A program made the position numbers and the translations under genes. The notes under the pieces were generated by a model. It was not told the DNA's origin. It ran no database searches and worked only from the letters and a program-made list of their open reading frames with translations. Shown one piece after another: positions 9,572 through 53,639 of a stretch of 64,000 bases of DNA. The stretch is taken from IMG/VR virus record IMGVR_UViG_3300046779_001841, positions 32,001 through 96,000 of that record, one strand, 5' to 3'. This DNA comes from a virus. Its lineage: Duplodnaviria > Caudoviricetes. How positions within the stretch are numbered: the stretch's first letter is position 1; each line of letters starts with the position of its first letter.

Positions 9572-9939
9572 AAAAGAAAATCATTGAAGTAAATAATAAG
9601 AAAGAGATGGATGCTTGGACAACATATTCTTATGTAACAGAACCATCACATGAAATTAAATATTTAAAGGGTGTAGAAGACACAGTGTTTTTTCAAGGTA
9701 GTGGTGCAAGTAGGAGGAGAGTAGCACCTTATTATATACCACCACTTAAAAATACAGATCCAGAAGTTTTAAATTTGATAGATGAATATCATGCGAGTGT
9801 TTTTAAATTAGAAGAAGCATATAAAGAATGGGATCTGAAAAGAGTAGAGATGTTAGGCAAATTGCGAGTGATGTCTGGCATTTTACCAAAGCCATATGAA
9901 GATATAGCAGTGATGATGAAAGACATCACTAAATCTTAA
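9568..9939 (+). CDS. Hypothetical protein
   Basis: 4-nt overlap with the upstream ORF. Confidence 0.65.
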   Translation: MKKKIIEVNNKKEMDAWTTYSYVTEPSHEIKYLKGVEDTVFFQGSGASRRRVAPYYIPPLKNTDPEVLNLIDEYHASVFKLEEAYKEWDLKRVEMLGKLRVMSGILPKPYEDIAVMMKDITKS

Positions 9940-9951
9940 TAAATCATTTAT
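9939..9951. promoter_or_regulatory. Palindrome ATAAAT-S-ATTTAT (class III upstream motif)
   Basis: ataaatcatttat. Also at 13780, 14427 and 59642. Confidence 0.5.
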
Positions 9952-9984
9952 ACTTATAGTATTAAGGAATGTAATAATTTTCTA

Positions 9985-10062
9985 AACAAAAGGATCATTA
10001 AAATGATTAGTCAAAAATTAGCTTCTTTAGAAGCAAGAATCGCTAAGTTAGAGCAATCTAGT
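9985..10062 (+). repeat. Leader plus N-terminal-tag cassette, copy 1
   Basis: 78 bp identical to 10389-10466. Near-identical copies precede 12926, 13846 and 14492. Confidence 0.95.
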
Positions 10063-10380
10063 GTATCCACTAAAAAAGCATCTACTTCTTTAGATCTTCG
10101 ATCTATTATAGTTGCTCTTAAGAGTGTAACTAAAGGTAAAAACTGGAAATGGAAGATTCAAGGTAGTGATAAAATCACAGGATTTTATTTCGATGAGATG
10201 ATAGATGGTGCAGTATTTGTTGAGTTTAAAGATCAAGGTACAAAAACCTTAATCGTTCTTGATACAGGTGATTACGACCAACATACTGTGCTTGTAGATA
10301 CTGATGCTGATGTAATGGTTATTGCTAAAACAATTATTAAAGCTATTTACAACTATGATCTGTTGGGTAAATTCTTTTAA
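10003..10380 (+). CDS. Tagged protein (MISQKLASLEARIAKLE), unknown cargo; putative virion-internal protein
   Basis: Shared N-terminus followed by KKAS, then unique sequence. Confidence 0.8.
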   Translation: MISQKLASLEARIAKLEQSSVSTKKASTSLDLRSIIVALKSVTKGKNWKWKIQGSDKITGFYFDEMIDGAVFVEFKDQGTKTLIVLDTGDYDQHTVLVDTDADVMVIAKTIIKAIYNYDLLGKFF

Positions 10381-10388
10381 TAAGTCAT

Positions 10389-10466
10389 AACAAAAGGATC
10401 ATTAAAATGATTAGTCAAAAATTAGCTTCTTTAGAAGCAAGAATCGCTAAGTTAGAGCAATCTAGT
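10389..10466 (+). repeat. Leader plus N-terminal-tag cassette, copy 2
   Basis: 78 bp identical to 9985-10062. Confidence 0.95.
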
Positions 10467-10814
10467 TTAACCACTAAAAAAGCATCCGCTTTTAATATTC
10501 GTGAAGTTAAAGATTATGTGAAAAACCAAATCAAGAATTGGGGATTTAGTGTTTCACAACCTTCAAAAAATGAAATCTATGCTACAAATGAAGGTAGCAG
10601 AATCAGTGCAGGTATTCCAAAAGAATATTGGTCTTTTACCTTTACTCCAAAACAGGATGGCATTAAGATGGATTATGTAACTGAAGGTTTAAATGATTAC
10701 GATAATTCAAGTTATGATGAGAGTATTTTATTTGAATTTGACGATCCAGAAATTTCTGCTGATATTAATATGTATATTGGTGAATATATTGTTTTAAGAG
10801 TGACTAGATCCTAG
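10407..10814 (+). CDS. Tagged protein (MISQKLASLEARIAKLE), unknown cargo
   Basis: Shared N-terminus followed by KKAS, then unique sequence. Confidence 0.8.
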   Translation: MISQKLASLEARIAKLEQSSLTTKKASAFNIREVKDYVKNQIKNWGFSVSQPSKNEIYATNEGSRISAGIPKEYWSFTFTPKQDGIKMDYVTEGLNDYDNSSYDESILFEFDDPEISADINMYIGEYIVLRVTRS

Positions 10815-11790
10815 TATACTTATAAAACCATGTAAAAAATTCATGATATGCTTTCATATTTACAGATAGACCATCTATACTATCTTTTGTAATTAAGACA
10901 CCAGTACCTTCCATTACTTTCAAAAAAACATTTCGATATTCAATTTTATTGTCATTACTCATAAAAATGTTTTTAAGCCACCACTTATACATCTCTTTCA
11001 ATTCTTGTTCTTTCATTTCTACTGAAAGTGCATCAATATACTTATCAAATAAAGTAAAGTTGTAAGGTGCATAAGTTAAGACCTTGTTCTCATTGAAATA
11101 AGCAAAATCACATTTTCTTGCGAGTGTGAAAAGTGTTGGCAATTCGGATTTGAATTTTAAATCACCAGTCAAAAAGAGTTTAAAGTTTTCAGCTTTGTCT
11201 TTTAAGAAATTAAGTCCATCCAGATTATTGATAGAAACATTTAAAACTTTCTCTTGATAGTATGTAAAGATATATTTCTTATTGTCATAACCTTGTCTGT
11301 AATCATTGATCATAGATATTAAAGCAGTAAATGGATCTTGATCTATTTGAAAGACAAAGTACAGATATTTCTTGATCAATGGTATCAATTCTTGATATAG
11401 CTTACCTTCTTTTTTAAACATATCAGATGGTGCTTTACCCCAATCAATATCAACTTTCATGAGTAGATGTAAAAAAATGGTAGTTGGGAAAAGAACAAAA
11501 GTATTCTTCTCAACCAAAAGAACAAGATCTGGAATATGATCAAATCGTTTTAAATAGAAAAGAACTTGTTGTAGAACAGAAGCAATATTTTCTCTATTTA
11601 AGAGAGAGTAATCTGCTTTAGCTTCGATAAGAATTTTATAACCATCATCTAAAGTTAAAAGACCATCACATTGATGTGGTTTAGACCATTCACCACCAAG
11701 ATGGTGTCTTAATTCATTACGATAAACAGTTTCAATAAGAGATTCATTATTAGATGCAGATTCAATTTGTTTGATAAGTTGAGTGTTCAT
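10804..11790 (-). CDS. PD-(D/E)xK nuclease-domain protein (restriction-like N-terminus)
   Basis: QCDGLL...ILIEAK motif followed by LQQVLFYLKRF. Confidence 0.55.
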   Translation of the reverse strand: MNTQLIKQIESASNNESLIETVYRNELRHHLGGEWSKPHQCDGLLTLDDGYKILIEAKADYSLLNRENIASVLQQVLFYLKRFDHIPDLVLLVEKNTFVLFPTTIFLHLLMKVDIDWGKAPSDMFKKEGKLYQELIPLIKKYLYFVFQIDQDPFTALISMINDYRQGYDNKKYIFTYYQEKVLNVSINNLDGLNFLKDKAENFKLFLTGDLKFKSELPTLFTLARKCDFAYFNENKVLTYAPYNFTLFDKYIDALSVEMKEQELKEMYKWWLKNIFMSNDNKIEYRNVFLKVMEGTGVLITKDSIDGLSVNMKAYHEFFTWFYKYTRI

Positions 11791-11855
11791 TGGTTTCCTT
11801 ATGAAAGAGAATATCTTTCTTATATTATTTTATATACCAATGAACTTAATTTTTT

Positions 11856-12353
11856 TTATTCTTCATCATCAATCAAAGATGTTTGTTTGCCCTTTTTAGC
11901 TTTCTTTTCTTCATCTTTCTTCTTTTGATCTTCATCAAATAAAGCATAGACTTCAGATTTCCAATTACCATTGCGATCAATTTCTTCAGAAAAATAAGAA
12001 ACATCTGGTGTTCGCATACTATATGTCATTTCACCATTTTGATCATTTTCTTCAGCAACGATATGACAAAGTAAATGATCAATCAAAGAGATTTGATGTT
12101 TTTGATCTAAACTGCACCAAAGATCATAACCAATTTCAAGAATGAATTGATATTCTTTATCACCAAGAACAGTAAGAATACCAGGTGCTTTAATGATCTT
12201 GCCAAGATTATATTTGCCACCTGTTTTACCTGCTTTGTCTTTAAAGACAATTTGAATTTCGGAAAGAATATCTACTAATTTTGGATGACAGTTGCCAACC
12301 ACATATTCGACTACACTTTGATCTTCTTTTTCTGCTTTCCATTTATTTTGCAT
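11856..12353 (-). CDS. Phage metallopeptidase-like protein lacking the catalytic Glu (HLLCH)
   Basis: FILEIGYDLWCSLD..HQISLIDHLLCHI...PDVSYFSEEIDRNGNW resembles the putative phage metallopeptidase family (normally HELxH). Confidence 0.6.
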   Translation of the reverse strand: MQNKWKAEKEDQSVVEYVVGNCHPKLVDILSEIQIVFKDKAGKTGGKYNLGKIIKAPGILTVLGDKEYQFILEIGYDLWCSLDQKHQISLIDHLLCHIVAEENDQNGEMTYSMRTPDVSYFSEEIDRNGNWKSEVYALFDEDQKKKDEEKKAKKGKQTSLIDDEE

Positions 12354-12432
12354 AATGCACAATCCTTTTTTTAATTTGGAAAAGTATGAATGAACAATAC
12401 ACAATATCTTATAAGATCTTTAACAAGATTTA

Positions 12433-12798
12433 CTATCTAATTCTTCTTTTTGCATTTCTCATGATTTTATTTTGAATATATTGATCTACACTTTCTTGTT
12501 CTTCTTCTAATGCGCGATCACTCATATTTTGAATGAAGAATTTTTTGGTTTCTGCAATATCTTTTAGTGCTTTCTTTTTTCCCATATTATAATAGATTTG
12601 ATCATCTAAAACGAGTTTAGATGTAGAAACTAAAGCACTAAAGAAACGAAGTCTAAAGAATTGTGGAATTTGGCTTTTCATTTCATTAAAATAAGAGATA
12701 CCAATTTCATTCGCATCTTCAAATTGACCTGCGATAATAAGTTTCTCAATGTCATTTAAAGCACTGAGTATTTTTTTAAGTATGATACTTGTTTTCAT
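12433..12798 (-). CDS. Hypothetical helical protein
   Basis: AAGGA RBS before MKTSII. Confidence 0.6.
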   Translation of the reverse strand: MKTSIILKKILSALNDIEKLIIAGQFEDANEIGISYFNEMKSQIPQFFRLRFFSALVSTSKLVLDDQIYYNMGKKKALKDIAETKKFFIQNMSDRALEEEQESVDQYIQNKIMRNAKRRIR

Positions 12799-12925
12799 TT
12801 TTTTGTCCTTGTATCTTGAATGGAACACATACATAGAACAGAGATATAAATTTAATATTTATTAAATAGATAGATAGGTAGATAGATGAGTGTTTAATAT
12901 TTTTCTAAACAAAAGGATCATTAAA

Positions 12926-13429
12926 ATGATTAGTCAAAAATTAGCTTCTTTAGAAGCAAGAATCGTCAAGTTAGAACAATCTGGCAACAAACAAGCAAGT
13001 CAAACTCGAAATGCAGGTTGGACACCAGGTTCTGGTGCTATGCCAACAGCTAAAGATCTTTTTAAGAGTATTGGTTTATATTTAGACAAAAGACATAACA
13101 TTAGCTGGGAATTAAAACATGATAAGTCACAAGGTAATTCTGGCAATGGTATGATTGAAATCAAATTTGGTGAAGACTATTCTGTTGGTGATCCTGGTTA
13201 TACTGCAAGTGCAATATATGACTTTCGAGTAAGAACAGATTTGATGTCAGGTGAAACACAACTTATTTTTAATATTACACCAACAAAAGAATTTAGAGGA
13301 TTTGCTTCTAGTAAGACTTTTGTCCTTGATTTTTATCAAGGACAACCACAAAGAGAATGGGATATGCAAATCATTCAAATTACAGAATGGCTACAAAAAT
13401 TTCATGATAATTTAGAATCAAACTATTGA
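12926..13429 (+). CDS. Tagged protein (MISQKLASLEARIVKLE), unknown cargo
   Basis: Start at the cassette ATG. Tag followed by KQAS and RNAG. Confidence 0.8.
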   Translation: MISQKLASLEARIVKLEQSGNKQASQTRNAGWTPGSGAMPTAKDLFKSIGLYLDKRHNISWELKHDKSQGNSGNGMIEIKFGEDYSVGDPGYTASAIYDFRVRTDLMSGETQLIFNITPTKEFRGFASSKTFVLDFYQGQPQREWDMQIIQITEWLQKFHDNLESNY

Positions 13430-13761
13430 TATTTTTTAATCCATTCATGTTCTGTACCTAGACCACAACAATATTTACTATCTTCTATCGTCCATTGTGT
13501 TCTTGATTTTCCTCTTTTAGATTTAAGTGCTTTCTCAGCTTTCATTGCAGTTGAACGATCTGGATATGTTCCATATAATGCTTTTGGCACCCAAGGTCTA
13601 TATTTAGAGGTATAGGTGGCTCCACCATGTATCTCTCCATTATGTTGCCTTAATCTTCTTTCATAATCTGTAGTGCATCCTACATAATAAAAGCCTTCAA
13701 GTTCTTTACCTGTTTTACTATATCTCTTCTGTTGAGATTGAAGTACATATACATACCACAT
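13423..13761 (-). CDS. SLX1/UPF0213-like GIY-YIG nuclease
   Basis: WYVYVLQS...YYVGCTTDYERRLRQHNGEIHGGATYT..YRPW...AMKAEKALK. Confidence 0.85.
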   Translation of the reverse strand: MWYVYVLQSQQKRYSKTGKELEGFYYVGCTTDYERRLRQHNGEIHGGATYTSKYRPWVPKALYGTYPDRSTAMKAEKALKSKRGKSRTQWTIEDSKYCCGLGTEHEWIKKYQ

Positions 13762-13845
13762 AGTCCATATCCTTTGTGAATAAATGATTTATACTTATAT
13801 CATTTGTGTGAATGTTTAATAATTTTTCTAAAAAGGATCAATAAA

Positions 13846-14388
13846 ATGATTAGTCAAAAACTCGCTTCTTTAGAAGCAAGGATCGCTAAACTCGAAAGTA
13901 AAAAAGCAGGTGTTGGATTAAGACCTAAGTCACCATCTCAAATTAATTATGTAACACCAAATGTTGAAGATGTTGCACACATGATTCAACTTATTCTTGG
14001 CAATACTTTTCATCGTTTTATGTCTAAACAAAATAGTGGTAGTGGTCTAATAGTTATTATGGATAGTTCATTCTATAAAGATGAAGATTTTTTCTTTCAT
14101 CCAGAAGATACTATCGAACAACACAATAATGTCATAGCAAATATGACTGTTAATATTGTTCTTGAAGAAGGTGTGATGGATGATGAAATGTCTTACATTA
14201 GTCCTTATGGAGATGAAATGGATGATTATGCCTTAGAACTAAAACCTGTTACTACTTTTGCTACTATCACTTTTAAAGCCTTAGGTAAAGTTAAAACAGT
14301 TGAAGTTTCTTTTGGAATTGGAAGTACTTTAAAAAAAGTTCAAGCACAAATGAAACCACTTGTAGCTTTTTATAATTCATTTAGATAA
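13846..14388 (+). CDS. Tagged protein (MISQKLASLEARIAKLE), unknown cargo
   Basis: Tag followed by KKAG. Confidence 0.8.
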   Translation: MISQKLASLEARIAKLESKKAGVGLRPKSPSQINYVTPNVEDVAHMIQLILGNTFHRFMSKQNSGSGLIVIMDSSFYKDEDFFFHPEDTIEQHNNVIANMTVNIVLEEGVMDDEMSYISPYGDEMDDYALELKPVTTFATITFKALGKVKTVEVSFGIGSTLKKVQAQMKPLVAFYNSFR

Positions 14389-14491
14389 AAATCTCTATTG
14401 AAAAAGCTATTATCTTTTGTTTGTGAATAAATCATTTATACTTGATGATTTATATGAATGTTTAATAATTTTAATAAAAGGATAATCTAAA

Positions 14492-15016
14492 ATGATTAGT
14501 CAAAAAATCGCTTCTCTTGAAGACCGTCTTGCTAGATTAGATCGATCTAACTTAACAAACAAAAAATCTTCTTTTCGTGATAAGACTTCTTCAAGTTTTA
14601 CACCTCCAGATATTTACAATATTTGTCATATTGATTTTGATTTCTTAAAGAAAGAATTAGAAAAAACTTATTCAGATTATGACCTTACACTTTCTAAGCT
14701 AGAATCTAATTTTCCTGGACATTACGATGTTCTTTTTTTCCTAGAATATGGAAAACATGAATTTTTACAGGTTCTTATTTCTTTAAGAGTGGGAAAAGGT
14801 GATGAAAAAATTACTGTTGGTGTTGATCTAAAATTTGAACATGACGATCCAGATGCTCAATTCTCAGAAAGTACTGCGAAAGATTATAAATTAAAGGATA
14901 TAGATTCTACTATAAATCATAAAATAATTAAGTATGTAAAAGAAACATATACTGATAGTTTGAATCTTTTAAATTTCAAAATTGAACTCGCAGAAGAATA
15001 CCATCCTAAATATTGA
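14492..15016 (+). CDS. Tagged protein (MISQKIASLEDRLARLD), unknown cargo
   Basis: Variant tag followed by KKSS. Confidence 0.8.
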   Translation: MISQKIASLEDRLARLDRSNLTNKKSSFRDKTSSSFTPPDIYNICHIDFDFLKKELEKTYSDYDLTLSKLESNFPGHYDVLFFLEYGKHEFLQVLISLRVGKGDEKITVGVDLKFEHDDPDAQFSESTAKDYKLKDIDSTINHKIIKYVKETYTDSLNLLNFKIELAEEYHPKY

Positions 15017-15064
15017 TTTTATAATCATCTCTATTAAAAAATCTATATATCATTGGAGATGATT

Positions 15065-16852
15065 ATGAAACCTACTTTATCAGAATTTATTGATTCAGCT
15101 AAAGAATCACTACTTGCTATTATTGAACAATCTAAAAGATTAAAGAAAACTTTCAACACTGAAAGAACTTTTGTTGCAGAATTGAAAACAAAAGCAAATT
15201 TTAAGAAATTTATGAAAGACTATGCAGGTAAAAAAAACCTAGAAACTAGAATCAATCCACTATCATATATTGTTAGAGATGCTTTATTTGACCCAACTTA
15301 TGATTTAAATGCTAAACTTATTGATTTGGAATCTTTCCTAAGAATGTCTTATAAAGAAACTTATCCAGAAGATACAAAAGCAGAAAGAGAAAGAGAAAAA
15401 AGAAGTAAAGCATTTGAAAAAGATGTTCGTGGAACACAAAAAGCAGAAACACAAGCTAAGAAAGATTATGTTGCGATCTTTACTACAATGAACTCTGTAT
15501 TACAAACAGATTTTACACAATCAAATGGTAACAGTCGAGTATTTACAAGTAAATTGAAAGCCTATGGTCAAAGTTCAAATAATGCTATTGGCAAATTCAT
15601 TGAAACATATTTTGCAGGTAGTGATAATGCAGAAAGCAGGATTAACACTTTTATCTATGCAATAAGAGATAACTACTTTCCATCCACATCACCAGATGCA
15701 CCTAAAAATCCAAGAGCAATGTTTGATAAAAAACTTGCAGGTATTGTTAAGTCATCACATAAAAATAGAGTGTTAAATGAAGAAAGAGAAGCACTAGAAT
15801 CTGTTATTCCAGAATCCTTTTTGCAATATTTACCAAGTACTTTAATCGTTGAAGTAGATAAGAACAGTAAAATCACAAAGATCCGATCTAAATTTGCAGA
15901 AAGAATTAATGACATTGGTGCAAAAATTGAAAGACAAAAAGATTTACTCAAGAACTTAACTAAACTTGAATTGAAAATCAAAAAAGATCTTAAAAGCACT
16001 GATCATGATACTAAGATGAAAGCACTTATTATCTATTTAATGCTAGATACTGGTATTCGACCTGGTGCAGAACAAAATAAGATTAGAAATCCTGATTTTG
16101 AAGTCGATGCTCTTACAGATGAAGATGATGAAGATGAATATGATGAATTTTTAGAAACTTATGGTGCGACCACTCTTAATAAACAACATATTCTTTTTGT
16201 TAGAGAGAATTTTATATCTTTAAAGTTTAGAGGTAAAAAAGGTACAATCAATTTGGCAGATATAAGTGATGCAACTTTAGTTAAAGCCATTAAAGATCTT
16301 GTAGAGAAAACACGAAATGTGGAAAGAAGTAATTATCTTTTCTTAGATAGTGCAGGTCAAATTTTTGACCAACCAAAAATCACTGCATATTTAAGAGCAA
16401 TTATTCCTGGTCTTAATTTAACAGATTTTAGAAAATTGAAATCATCAAGAGTTCTTTTAGATGCTTTAAGAGAGAAACAAGAAATTCTTTTACAAAAGAT
16501 TTATGATTTGAACCAACAACAAGTAGAAGATTTAAAAGAACAAGTCATTTCTTTAATTGAAGAAGTTGTTGAAGAATCTTTTGAACAATCTATGGTTGCA
16601 TTAAGTCATCAGAATATGAACACTACTATTAAATCTTATATCAATCCACAAGTCTTACTTAATTTCTTATCCACTGGTAAAGTAGCAGATAAACTTGAAG
16701 ATATTGTTTTAAATCAACAAAATTTGAAATTTGACCCACAAGTCTTTATTACATCTGCAATAGCTTATGGTAGTGCTATTGGTGAATTGACACAAGGTGC
16801 ATCAACAACAAGGACTGCATCTTTAAGAGAATTGTTTAGAATGATAGCTTAA
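15065..16852 (+). CDS. DNA topoisomerase IB (bacterial/poxvirus-like) with a long N-terminal extension
   Basis: Catalytic residues in order: TGIRPG (R), FRGKKG (K), DFRK (R), LSH (H), KSYINP (Y). Confidence 0.8.
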   Translation: MKPTLSEFIDSAKESLLAIIEQSKRLKKTFNTERTFVAELKTKANFKKFMKDYAGKKNLETRINPLSYIVRDALFDPTYDLNAKLIDLESFLRMSYKETYPEDTKAEREREKRSKAFEKDVRGTQKAETQAKKDYVAIFTTMNSVLQTDFTQSNGNSRVFTSKLKAYGQSSNNAIGKFIETYFAGSDNAESRINTFIYAIRDNYFPSTSPDAPKNPRAMFDKKLAGIVKSSHKNRVLNEEREALESVIPESFLQYLPSTLIVEVDKNSKITKIRSKFAERINDIGAKIERQKDLLKNLTKLELKIKKDLKSTDHDTKMKALIIYLMLDTGIRPGAEQNKIRNPDFEVDALTDEDDEDEYDEFLETYGATTLNKQHILFVRENFISLKFRGKKGTINLADISDATLVKAIKDLVEKTRNVERSNYLFLDSAGQIFDQPKITAYLRAIIPGLNLTDFRKLKSSRVLLDALREKQEILLQKIYDLNQQQVEDLKEQVISLIEEVVEESFEQSMVALSHQNMNTTIKSYINPQVLLNFLSTGKVADKLEDIVLNQQNLKFDPQVFITSAIAYGSAIGELTQGASTTRTASLRELFRMIA

Positions 16853-19529: not shown

Positions 19530-19904
19530 TTATCCAATAAAACTTTCCCAAGTATCTACAATATCTTCTAAAAATTTTTTAGCAACATCTAGCTTAATTT
19601 CTGTTGTTTTACTTGCTTTAAAATTATGATTTAGATCTTTAGTTTTACCTTCTGCATTCTTAAAGATAACTTTAATAACACCATCACGATGTTTTTTCAT
19701 AGAAATAACAGCAGAACCTGAACCATCTTTAGCAATAATTTCATAATCTCTTTCTGCTTTAATATCATAGTTTTTTTTAGGAAACTTAGTAGGTAGAAAT
19801 TCATCAAAAAATTCAATATAGTCTTCATATTCTTCTTTTGCAATACGAAGTGTTTGAATTTTTGCAAGACGGGCTTCAAGAGATGCGAGTTTACGATTAA
19901 ACAT
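19530..19904 (-). CDS. Tagged protein (MFNRKLASLEARLAKI), unknown cargo
   Basis: Divergent version of the tag, followed by RIAK. Confidence 0.75.
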   Translation of the reverse strand: MFNRKLASLEARLAKIQTLRIAKEEYEDYIEFFDEFLPTKFPKKNYDIKAERDYEIIAKDGSGSAVISMKKHRDGVIKVIFKNAEGKTKDLNHNFKASKTTEIKLDVAKKFLEDIVDTWESFIG

Positions 19905-51736: not shown

Positions 51737-52123
51737 TTAAATCATAACAGGCAATGGACTGCCACTCCATGCTTCAAGTACTTTATTGCCAATTAAAATT
51801 TCTGATTTAAAATCAGGATCGTCAGATTCTTGAATAATACCTTTGATCGCAGAACCTGCAGATGAATGTAAATCAGGTACAACATATCTAATATTGGTTA
51901 TATTTTTTCTTCTAATCTTAGGTTCGATATTTGAATCGATTTGTTCTAATGGTTGTACAATCACAGTATGGTTTTCTAAATCTACATTTAAGACTTTATA
52001 GAATGTAAATTTAAAAGCACCAAGTTCACCGAAAACATAAATGTCATTCTTAGCAATATCTGTAATATGGTTTGCACTCTTGAGATTTGATAATCTCTTT
52101 TTTAAAGAAGCAAGTTTGTTCAT
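51737..52123 (-). CDS. Tagged protein (MNKLASLKKRLSNLKSA), unknown cargo
   Basis: AAAGGA RBS before MNKLAS; divergent tag. Confidence 0.7.
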   Translation of the reverse strand: MNKLASLKKRLSNLKSANHITDIAKNDIYVFGELGAFKFTFYKVLNVDLENHTVIVQPLEQIDSNIEPKIRRKNITNIRYVVPDLHSSAGSAIKGIIQESDDPDFKSEILIGNKVLEAWSGSPLPVMI

Positions 52124-53231: not shown

Positions 53232-53639
53232 ATGATTAGACAAAGACTCGCTTCTTTAGAATCCCGTATCGCTGTAATAAAAACTAGAGGAACGGATTCA
53301 ATTACAGGAATTTATAATTTAAAAAATGTAGACTTTGATCAAATATTAAATTATATGGATGGTATTATAGGTGGTGTCTATGAATATTCATTTGAAAAAG
53401 TACCAAACAACAAATATGATGGTGTGAAGATCGTTGTTAAAAAGCCCAGAGAAACATTTGTGTTTCAAATTGATGTAAGACAAGATTTGAATGCTTTGCA
53501 AATCTTATATTTTCTTCCCCTTTCTTATGGTGGTAAATATCATTATTCTAAAGAGATTCCATTTGATAAACTTGGAAAGAATGTAAATTGGGTCATAGCT
53601 GAAAAACTTAGAGATTTTGTCAAGGTTTATGACTATTAA
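53232..53639 (+). CDS. Tagged protein (MIRQRLASLESRIAVI), unknown cargo
   Basis: Divergent tag. Confidence 0.75.
   Translation: MIRQRLASLESRIAVIKTRGTDSITGIYNLKNVDFDQILNYMDGIIGGVYEYSFEKVPNNKYDGVKIVVKKPRETFVFQIDVRQDLNALQILYFLPLSYGGKYHYSKEIPFDKLGKNVNWVIAEKLRDFVKVYDY

Follow-up and report, generated by a model that had tools for sequence, protein, structure and literature searches.

The core and internal proteins of phage T4 carry N-terminal capsid-targeting sequence (CTS) propeptides of 10–19 residues, which are identical in IPII and IPIII (PMC9026906). Among T4 relatives the internal proteins vary while CTS-like sequences persist, and the T4 protease is suspected of being targeted likewise by its own propeptides (PMC9026906). 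Here we describe a short N-terminal leader, shared by small proteins with otherwise dissimilar cargo parts, in a 64,000-nucleotide stretch of viral DNA (hereafter the window) comprising bases 32001–96000 of the IMG/VR record IMGVR_UViG_3300046779_001841. This record of 316,221 bp (31% G+C), which is classed as a complete virus, represents an uncultivated tailed jumbo phage of 316 kb from freshwater, and near-identical DNA is present in freshwater metagenomes of 13 studies. Coordinates are those of the window unless given as genome positions.

As with the T4 CTS (on IPI/IPII/IPIII, Alt, gp67 and gp68), a short N-terminal peptide recurs here on otherwise unrelated proteins of one phage, with a variable set of cargos behind conserved 5′ DNA; a candidate protease site follows the peptide. 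The variable internal protein locus of T-even phages reportedly repeats promoter, ribosome-binding site and CTS DNA before each gene, and IPI* is said to be a small protein with sheets flanked by terminal helices. The T4 propeptide ends at a head-protease site; the candidate site here is [KR]-x-A|[SGN] (the bar marks the bond), not L/I-x-E. Unlike the T4 CTS, the leader has 17–27 residues (10–19 in T4), is a helix with canonical heptads and is conserved much more tightly. The head maturation protease, unlike those of the T4 gp21 type, has no Pfam match and falls in phrog_18299, and [LI]-x-E is not enriched in the head proteins. Also in contrast to T4, the phage has a 293-residue capsid protein of phrog_2522 with a separate 694-residue scaffold, and 13–20 tagged genes over several loci whose cargos are mostly acidic, not basic. 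Head machinery unrelated to T4 in sequence, together with a different candidate cut rule, sets the system apart from the T4 family.

Other head systems offer partial parallels. The heads of phiKZ and SPN3US contain many processed internal proteins, and the present jumbo phage likewise encodes a large candidate multi-site substrate of 967 residues with 12 sites. The phiKZ/SPN3US propeptides (gp175/gp245 protease, S/A/G-x-E) have no common sequence and a cut motif ending in Glu, whereas [SAG]-x-E is not notably enriched here and the leader is nearly identical between cargos. In HK97, the C-terminal tail of the maturation protease reportedly carries the protein into the procapsid via the scaffold-equivalent delta domain. 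The protease described here and those of two relatives similarly end in a leader-like helix containing R-L-A; the HK97 tail is C-terminal on one protein, whereas the helix here is N-terminal and appears to have been copied onto many cargos. Encapsulin cargo-loading peptides, which are also short, portable peptides that bring diverse cargo into an HK97-fold shell, provide a functional analogy only, as they bind the shell protein directly, are usually C-terminal and uncleaved, and follow another consensus. Herpesvirus assemblin cleaves at (V/L/I)-x-A|S sites. An Ala before and a Ser after the candidate bond are likewise seen in the scaffold and at the putative self-processing sites of the protease, a resemblance only, with Lys/Arg, unlike in assemblin, as the third residue before the cut.

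The leader family and its cargos

Five plus-strand open reading frames (ORFs), at 10003–10380, 10407–10814, 12926–13429, 13846–14388 and 14492–15016 (leader genes 1 to 5; 125, 135, 167, 180 and 174 aa), had been singled out in a preliminary description for a common N-terminal peptide followed by [KR]-x-A/S linker motifs, and both features were confirmed in every one of them. The motifs are KKAS (10072–10083), KKAS (10476–10487), KQAS (12989–13000, then RNAG), KKAG (13900–13911) and KKSS (14561–14572). The ORF listing extends two of the five genes to upstream GTG/TTG codons; the conserved starts are the ATG at 12926 and the ATG at 13846, each preceded by an AAAGGA ribosome-binding site. Four of the ORFs begin with MISQKLASLEARI(A/V)KLE and leader gene 5 with the variant MISQKIASLEDRLARLD, giving the consensus MISQK(L/I)ASLE(A/D)R(I/L)(A/V)(K/R)L(E/D), after which come a short polar linker and the junction motif. 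In leader gene 1 the helix is encoded at 10003–10053, and the cargo has 99 aa with an isoelectric point (pI) of 5.2. Leader gene 2 lies 26 nt 3′ of leader gene 1 and is probably co-transcribed with it. An orthologue of leader gene 3 in the relative L029 has an intact leader, and leader gene 5 has the orthologue P0005.

A scan of the whole genome with a hidden Markov model (HMM) of the leader, as the preliminary description had proposed, revealed a larger family than first noted. Run against every possible start in the 316-kb genome, the HMM found 13 genes at E <= 3.5e-11, with the next match at E = 0.003; these genes share the pattern M-x-x-x-[KR]-[LI]-A-S-L-E-x-R-[IL]-A-x-[LI]. The members beyond the first five are at 19530–19904(−) (leader gene 6, 124 aa, MFNRKLASLEARLAKIQ, the same residues in other codons), at 53232–53639(+) (leader gene 7, 135 aa, MIRQRLASLESRIAVIK, with an NKKAS junction in its orthologue P0009) and at genome positions 7185, 7904, 8865(−), 28367(−), 151262 and 152536. 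An unbiased all-vs-all comparison of N-termini recovered the leader set as the largest component when low-complexity and full-length-paralogue sets are excluded. The common leader on these genes is not due to chance. About six additional genes carry looser leaders: one of 128 aa at 51737–52123(−) (MNKLASLKKRLSNLKSAN), which lies under the HMM threshold and whose membership is tentative, one at genome 247629, and four 'class B' genes at genome 149825–152353, which start M(Y/F)(S/T)QR..RLASLRK..(K)(A/S)S. The class B genes are adjacent and lie outside the window (L014:13825-16353, minus strand); their leader, M(Y/F)(S/T)QRQR(L)SRLASLRK(S)RLASLRK(K)(A/S)S, repeats the motif in tandem, is strongly basic and ends in KKAS/RKSS, their cargos are acidic (pI 4.5–4.9), and two class A leader genes are interleaved among them. 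Searching viral contigs for related loci with the family alignments gave pattern matches of which none was confirmed, and a metagenome scan gained no additional contig.

By several comparisons the leader is a peptide under selection, not a nucleic-acid signal. Distant copies encode the same residues with exchanged codons (Leu TTA/CTT/CTC/CTA, Arg AGA/CGT/AGG, Ala GCA/GCC/GCT), with synonymous differences (pS = 0.56) exceeding nonsynonymous ones (pN = 0.24) over codons 5–17, and their upstream DNA differs. The metagenomic orthologues P0010 and P0011 of leader gene 4 have whole-protein identities of 61% and 49%, yet 19 of the 21 first residues are invariant. Four genes in the distant relative L023 start with MFYRSAADNKLASLEARIA(K/R)LENRISKRA(G/A/Y) or its variant MRLNKIASLESRIARLESRLAG, retaining the helix while its distance from the N-terminus shifts, and one relative has the same helix nine residues deeper in the protein (MFYRSAADNKLASLEARIAKLE). 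Positions A7, S8, L9, E10 and R12 are invariant and A14 almost so. With L6/L9/I13/L16 as the a/d core, most invariant positions map to the b, c, e and g faces, that is, to the surface. Invariance of A7, S8, E10 and R12 on the heptad surface rather than in the core would suggest recognition of the helix by one specific partner and not plain self-association.

Judged from its sequence relationships, the minus-strand gene at genome 8865 is decisive for the portability of the leader. Its 21 leader residues stand exactly before the initiator Met of a complete phrog_9437 domain, residues 25–116 matching positions 4–93 of the 98 in the profile, and a leaderless paralogue of this cargo at genome 245812–246102 matches the whole phrog_9437 profile. 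The alignment of its homologues starts exactly at the end of the leader plus KFAG. Many cellular relatives of the cargo were found in AlphaFold DB (E down to 6.5e-7, TM score ~0.7), aligning only from about residue 21.

The cassettes also appear to move. Genes 10003 and 10407 match at every DNA position from −15 to +60 (100% identity), and past about +75 their identity is no higher than random, a sharp end that points to a mosaic junction and not to gradual divergence. Leader gene 5 is missing in the relatives L029 and L030, where the orthologue of leader gene 4 abuts topoisomerase IB, and L031 has a new cargo behind the same leader. One contig from a marine/aquatic metagenome joins 13798 to 14448, so that the 13846 cassette, flanked by two copies of ATAAAT(C/G)ATTTATACTT, is deleted; this junction is a single low-depth contig, and its support is modest. 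Several metagenome runs have no depth over 14073–14339, and the 13846 cassette is absent from the contigs of some populations. By these contig comparisons, populations and relatives differ through the gain and loss of cassettes.

The cargo parts were first described as having no obvious mutual similarity, and neither BLAST nor hhalign, nor jackhmmer run within the proteome, detected any. In hhalign comparisons of small family profiles, the top-scoring of 136 cargo pairs reached 19% probability; the recent duplicate pair 7185/7904 is the exception to this lack of similarity. The one match of a cargo in Pfam or PHROGs was that of gene 8865 to phrog_9437. A profile search with the leaderless 13846 cargo against 1.84 billion representative proteins returned its own family only, and a search of the ESM Atlas gave no usable match. 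Most cargos are acidic.

Two cargo proteins were modelled with AlphaFold2 (AF2); with a predicted local distance difference test (pLDDT) score of ~70 and only the best model considered, both models are provisional. The 13846 model (pLDDT 71.8) contains the leader helix, a linker, a helix, a four-stranded sheet and a C-terminal helix; in the 8865 model, the leader helix is followed by two further helices, five strands and a C-terminal helix. Both gave overlapping weak PDB matches with Z of 5–8, values that may reflect merely a common arrangement: the Med17 C-domain, frataxin/CyaY, the TriTu immunity protein, the T4 MotA C-domain, the FP domain and YbjN / type III chaperone-like proteins. Foldseek found no significant match to the 13846 model in PDB, BFVD or AlphaFold DB. 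In these models the cargos look like small binder-type α/β sandwiches, not enzymes. The modular character proposed in the preliminary description held up, the leader being a portable protein-level module on unrelated cargos, and the diversity of 'effectors' was overstated there, both modelled cargos being small α/β sandwiches and not enzymes.

The junction motif in the head proteins

Two cut sites had been put forward at the outset, one after S-L-E within the leader and one at [KR]-x-A. Cleavage after S-L-E found no support, as neither [SAG]-x-E nor [LI]-x-E is notably enriched in the head proteins; [SAG]-x-E reaches no more than a z of 2.5 in the scaffold, an acidic and repetitive protein, and shows no enrichment in either the 967-aa protein or the capsid protein. 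The alternative was borne out as a motif of head proteins, being enriched in the scaffold and located at putative processing positions of the capsid protein and the protease. The proteome contains 202 [KR]-x-A-[SGN] sites against 110 expected from shuffles. The acidic, coiled-coil scaffold (694 aa; genome 287738–289822(−)) has 19 against 2.0–2.1 expected (about nine-fold, z 12.6). A 967-aa protein of the head region (genome 306638–309541(−)) has 12 [KR]-x-A-[SN] sites against about 2 expected (z 6.8) and may, like gp328 (8 sites) of Tunturi_5, a cultured Tunturiibacter phage (PP885688.1), be an internal or ejection protein that is processed at multiple sites. The single site in the major head (capsid) protein (293 aa; genome 285973–286854(−)) is N-terminal, GRAKLA|SS at residues 27–31. 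The head maturation protease (genome 289836–291320(−)) has 4 sites against 0.7–0.8 expected. One of them, RIRVA|SG, is at residue 25, and another, IQKVA|SQ, is at residue 267, precisely where the likeness to the catalytic domains of relatives ends and an acidic linker begins. This protease, for which no Pfam family and no PDB relative were found by sequence, has relatives in phage G, Bxz1-like phages, BcepSauron and Tunturi_5.

Corresponding sites were found in relatives. LR745208.1 is a 485-kb uncultured phage with the same lineage of protease (47% identical over the aligned region), scaffold and capsid protein; its sites are NKLA|AS in the capsid protein, IRIA|GG in the protease and GRKAS in the scaffold, which has 9 sites against 1.5 expected. 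In Tunturi_5 the protease has KKVA|S at residue 265, the presumed scaffold 6 sites against 1.3 expected and the ejection protein 8 against 2.0. Among the 13 leader proteins, strict [KR]-x-A-[SGN] follows the leader in 8, and in 11 when Ser is allowed at the Ala position; the linkers vary. Taken from its distribution, [KR]-x-A-[SGN] looks like the cut site of the head protease. Conservation of the scaffold in LR745208.1 is restricted to the N-terminal 150 and last 45 residues, and scaffold residues ~225–400 form four repeats of about 40 residues (AEEIAEEAVETAEELAEEVKALKKANAQLRMAKKS), each with an acidic half and then a basic half that resembles a basic leucine zipper (bZIP).

Two head proteins also contain the leader core itself, [KR]-x-A-[SG]-x3-R-[LI]: the scaffold, within its conserved N-terminal portion, and the protease, at its N-terminus. 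An extended pattern, [KR]-x-[AS]-[SGNA]-x3-R-[LIV], which was defined after examples had been seen, gave 24 matches against 2.5 expected; besides the leaders these include ERKAS-KCIRLAEQKLG-RKAS in the scaffold, RVASGNNRLD in the protease and the C-terminus of a 454-aa protein. The protease ends with ILVRLAKILSLK, in which ILVRLAKIL resembles the leader's ARIAKLE, and proteases of relatives end with TLIRLASLLSAHK... and QLRASFDRLLRK. In LR745208.1, the protease tail TLIRLAS and a leader, KLIRLAH, have LIRLA in common. This leader, MTTLRSKLIRLAHENPALRPQLLPLLKEAG, has 30 residues, differs from that of the window and stands at the N-terminus of 11 dispersed proteins of 93–351 aa. The tagged cargos have no mutual BLAST match, every leader ends with K/R-x-A-G/A, and 2 of the 11 genes lie within the LR745208.1 head module. 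The MTTLRSKLIRLAHENPALRPQLLPLLKEAG leader was found in no other record of the phage collection, and the window's leader was not found in LR745208.1 or Tunturi_5.

Some further tails and repeats were noted. A terminal motif, [KR][ILV]Ax[LVRI]W?Y, occurs 8 times (1.3 in shuffles), always within 30 residues of a protein terminus, in forms such as KIAKLY, RIASVY, KLAKLY, RIANRY, KVARRWY and KIAELY. Five of the eight are in or near the head module at genome 252–310 kb (252871–310158), others are at genome 26217 and 243862, the carriers include a ParB-like 411-aa protein, and several of the tails are kept in LR745208.1 orthologues. The degenerate DNA pattern for KLASLEAR[IL]A hit one unrelated contig, where an HK97-type protease has this peptide as its C-terminal tail; we set this aside as an anecdote, not evidence. 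The contig belongs to an unrelated phage with 49% G+C (IMGVR_UViG_3300011005_000336; L009:9126-9737(−)), the prohead protease tail being KAKLASLEARLAELRKDI and the next gene encoding a capsid protein with a coiled-coil delta domain. In Tunturi_5, STYKP(K/A)xxKDEFG occurs in short, probably non-coding frames at at least 6 places and is probably a repeated DNA element, and four large proteins have a common N-terminal TPAFKAWFGxSxVVD...VYHGT domain.

Possible roles of the leader

We put at about 0.5 the probability that the leader is a capsid-loading propeptide like the T4 CTS, with cleavage, in an unrelated head lineage. The two-heptad amphipathic helix (K-L-A-S-L-E-A / R-I-A-K-L-E) would dock each small protein, once synthesised, on some part of the prohead under assembly. 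Judging by the HK97 precedent of protease tail and delta domain, the scaffold would be the likeliest partner, possibly at the site used by the C-terminal tail of the protease itself. The docked protein would be enclosed when the shell closes, and the head protease would cut the junction [KR]-x-A | [S/G/N], and possibly also K-L-A|S within the leader. A mostly acidic α/β protein of 90–160 residues would thereby be freed inside the head, from where it could leave with the DNA on ejection. We infer docking, enclosure, cleavage and ejection, as well as any anti-defence role. A broader proposal, which we hold as tentative, is that huge phages of one clade, which have this protease, scaffold and small capsid protein in common, load their capsids by a programmable code. 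The code would consist of an Arg-hydrophobic-Ala helix specific to each lineage, which was copied from the targeting tail of the protease or evolves together with it, and then a K-x-A|S/G release site. Any small gene recombined behind such a cassette would be packaged and co-injected, and ~5% of the genes would be fast-changing cargo.

Several points weigh against capsid loading. Strict junctions are absent from 5 of the 13 members, and 19530–19904(−) and 53232–53639(+) have none even when Ser is allowed at the Ala position. Four of the 19 scaffold sites are the LKKAN of one internal repeat, and the motif patterns were defined partly after examples had been seen. Tunturi_5, whose protease is of the same family, has no analogous N-terminal leader family. 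The leader genes of the cluster are at genome 42–47 kb, distant from the head module at 286–300 kb, and no RNA run searched for the phage DNA contains it. Both modelled cargos are in the same broad α-β-α sandwich class, so that some cargos could have a very old common ancestry. The predicted complex of leader residues 1–45 with scaffold residues 95–400 scored 0.00, which gives no answer and is neutral on binding.

Other readings of the same features were weighed. The helix may be a docking or oligomerisation module acting outside the capsid interior, for instance a short coiled coil tethering small, variable binding domains to a fibre, a baseplate or another phage or host complex, or simply di- or trimerising them, with [KR]-x-A-[SGN] as a linker. 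This would suit the canonical a/d heptads and modelled helix, the binder-like α/β sandwiches, the location of the leader genes outside the head module and a promoter-like AATAA-N4-TTTATA that the leader genes share with some non-head genes. We nevertheless consider it unlikely, since conservation of the b, c, e and g surface is much stricter than self-association requires, the junction motif is the one abundant in the scaffold and marking putative processing sites of the capsid protein and the protease, scaffold and protease both contain the leader core, and the parallel leader of LR745208.1 likewise ends with K-x-A-G. That the conserved unit is instead a cassette serving expression and recombination at the level of DNA or RNA (promoter, ribosome-binding site and first codons), with a functionless peptide, is improbable. 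The conserved DNA does start 5′ of the ATG, its block identity does end abruptly, and a cassette-sized deletion lies between repeated upstream elements; distant copies, however, keep residues while changing codons, their upstream DNA differs, and a relative has the helix at a shifted position, which together suggest that recombination is the way the module spreads and not its purpose.

Timed removal of the tagged proteins, with the leader as an N-terminal degradation or adaptor tag read by a phage ClpP-like protease and an SspB-like adaptor, would draw on the ClpP gene located at most 5 kb from leader genes in the relative L023. No likeness to known ClpX/SspB recognition motifs was seen, however, and such a tag leaves the junction motif, the scaffold enrichment and the leader-like motifs in scaffold and protease unexplained; we judge it very improbable. 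Still further down the scale, and extremely improbable, is a double-glycine export leader of the bacteriocin type, removed on secretion by a peptidase-containing ATP-binding transporter (PCAT). An amphipathic N-terminal leader of 15–30 residues before a small-residue cut motif is superficially like LSxxELxxIxGG, but the junction is K-x-A-S/G and not G-G/A/S, a cargo of 100–200 residues would be long for such export, and head proteins, which are intracellular, contain the motif too. We rejected secretion on the wrong junction motif and because no PCAT transporter or C39 peptidase was present among the proteins scanned, the genome as a whole not having been searched for one.

Genomic setting and implications

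Conserved DNA surrounds the leader starts. The shared 5′ DNA with its ribosome-binding site, AAACAAAAGGATCATTAAA (9984–10002(+) for leader gene 1), is identical or nearly so 5′ of 10003, 10407 and 12926 and similar 5′ of 13846 and 14492. A palindromic element, ATAAATCATTTATACTT, has exact copies at 9939–9955(+), 48–64 nt 5′ of the 10003 start, at 13780–13796(+) and at 14427–14443(+), against 0.32 expected by chance, and is a candidate non-early promoter or operator and cassette boundary. Consistent with the preliminary description, 'class I' promoters are absent from the 5′ regions of the leader genes, none of the nine TTGCAA-N18-TGTTAT elements in the window being so placed. A distinct upstream motif had been ascribed there to four of the five genes; ATAAAT(C/G)ATTTATACTT was found before three. 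AT-rich upstream motifs of leader genes also precede genes of mixed kinds, and the promoter class is a deduction from sequence.

A topoisomerase IB gene (599 aa; 15053–16852(+); PF01028, E 1e-11) lies directly 3′ of the leader cluster, an order kept in L029 and L030. A small GIY-YIG nuclease gene is located between leader genes 3 and 4 at 13423–13761(−), and L029 has a 380-aa GIY-YIG gene on the opposite strand in the same location. GIY-YIG genes of differing strand and size at one place suggest homing-endonuclease traffic in a variable locus. Besides the protease, scaffold and capsid protein, the head module (genome 286–301 kb) includes the large terminase (genome 299135–300973(−)), the portal (genome 296496–298229(−)), a 1266-aa protein and a 223-aa protein.

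If the leader does load the head, the phage would possess a large, cleanly delimited capsid-targeting system outside T4, with 13–20 tagged genes, a tag of ~20–27 residues and a candidate release site. The specificity, Lys/Arg three before, Ala before and Ser/Gly/Asn after the cut, would be assigned to a widespread, uncharacterised family of head proteases that is also present in phage G, Bxz1-like mycobacteriophages, BcepSauron and Tunturi_5, and a second, differently worded version of the leader exists in the related 485-kb phage LR745208.1. It would also offer a portable tag to load foreign proteins into large capsids. Finally, it would provide a sequence rule to predict the injected proteome of uncultivated huge phages, together with a list of small orphan proteins as prime candidates for host takeover or anti-defence in the first minute of infection.

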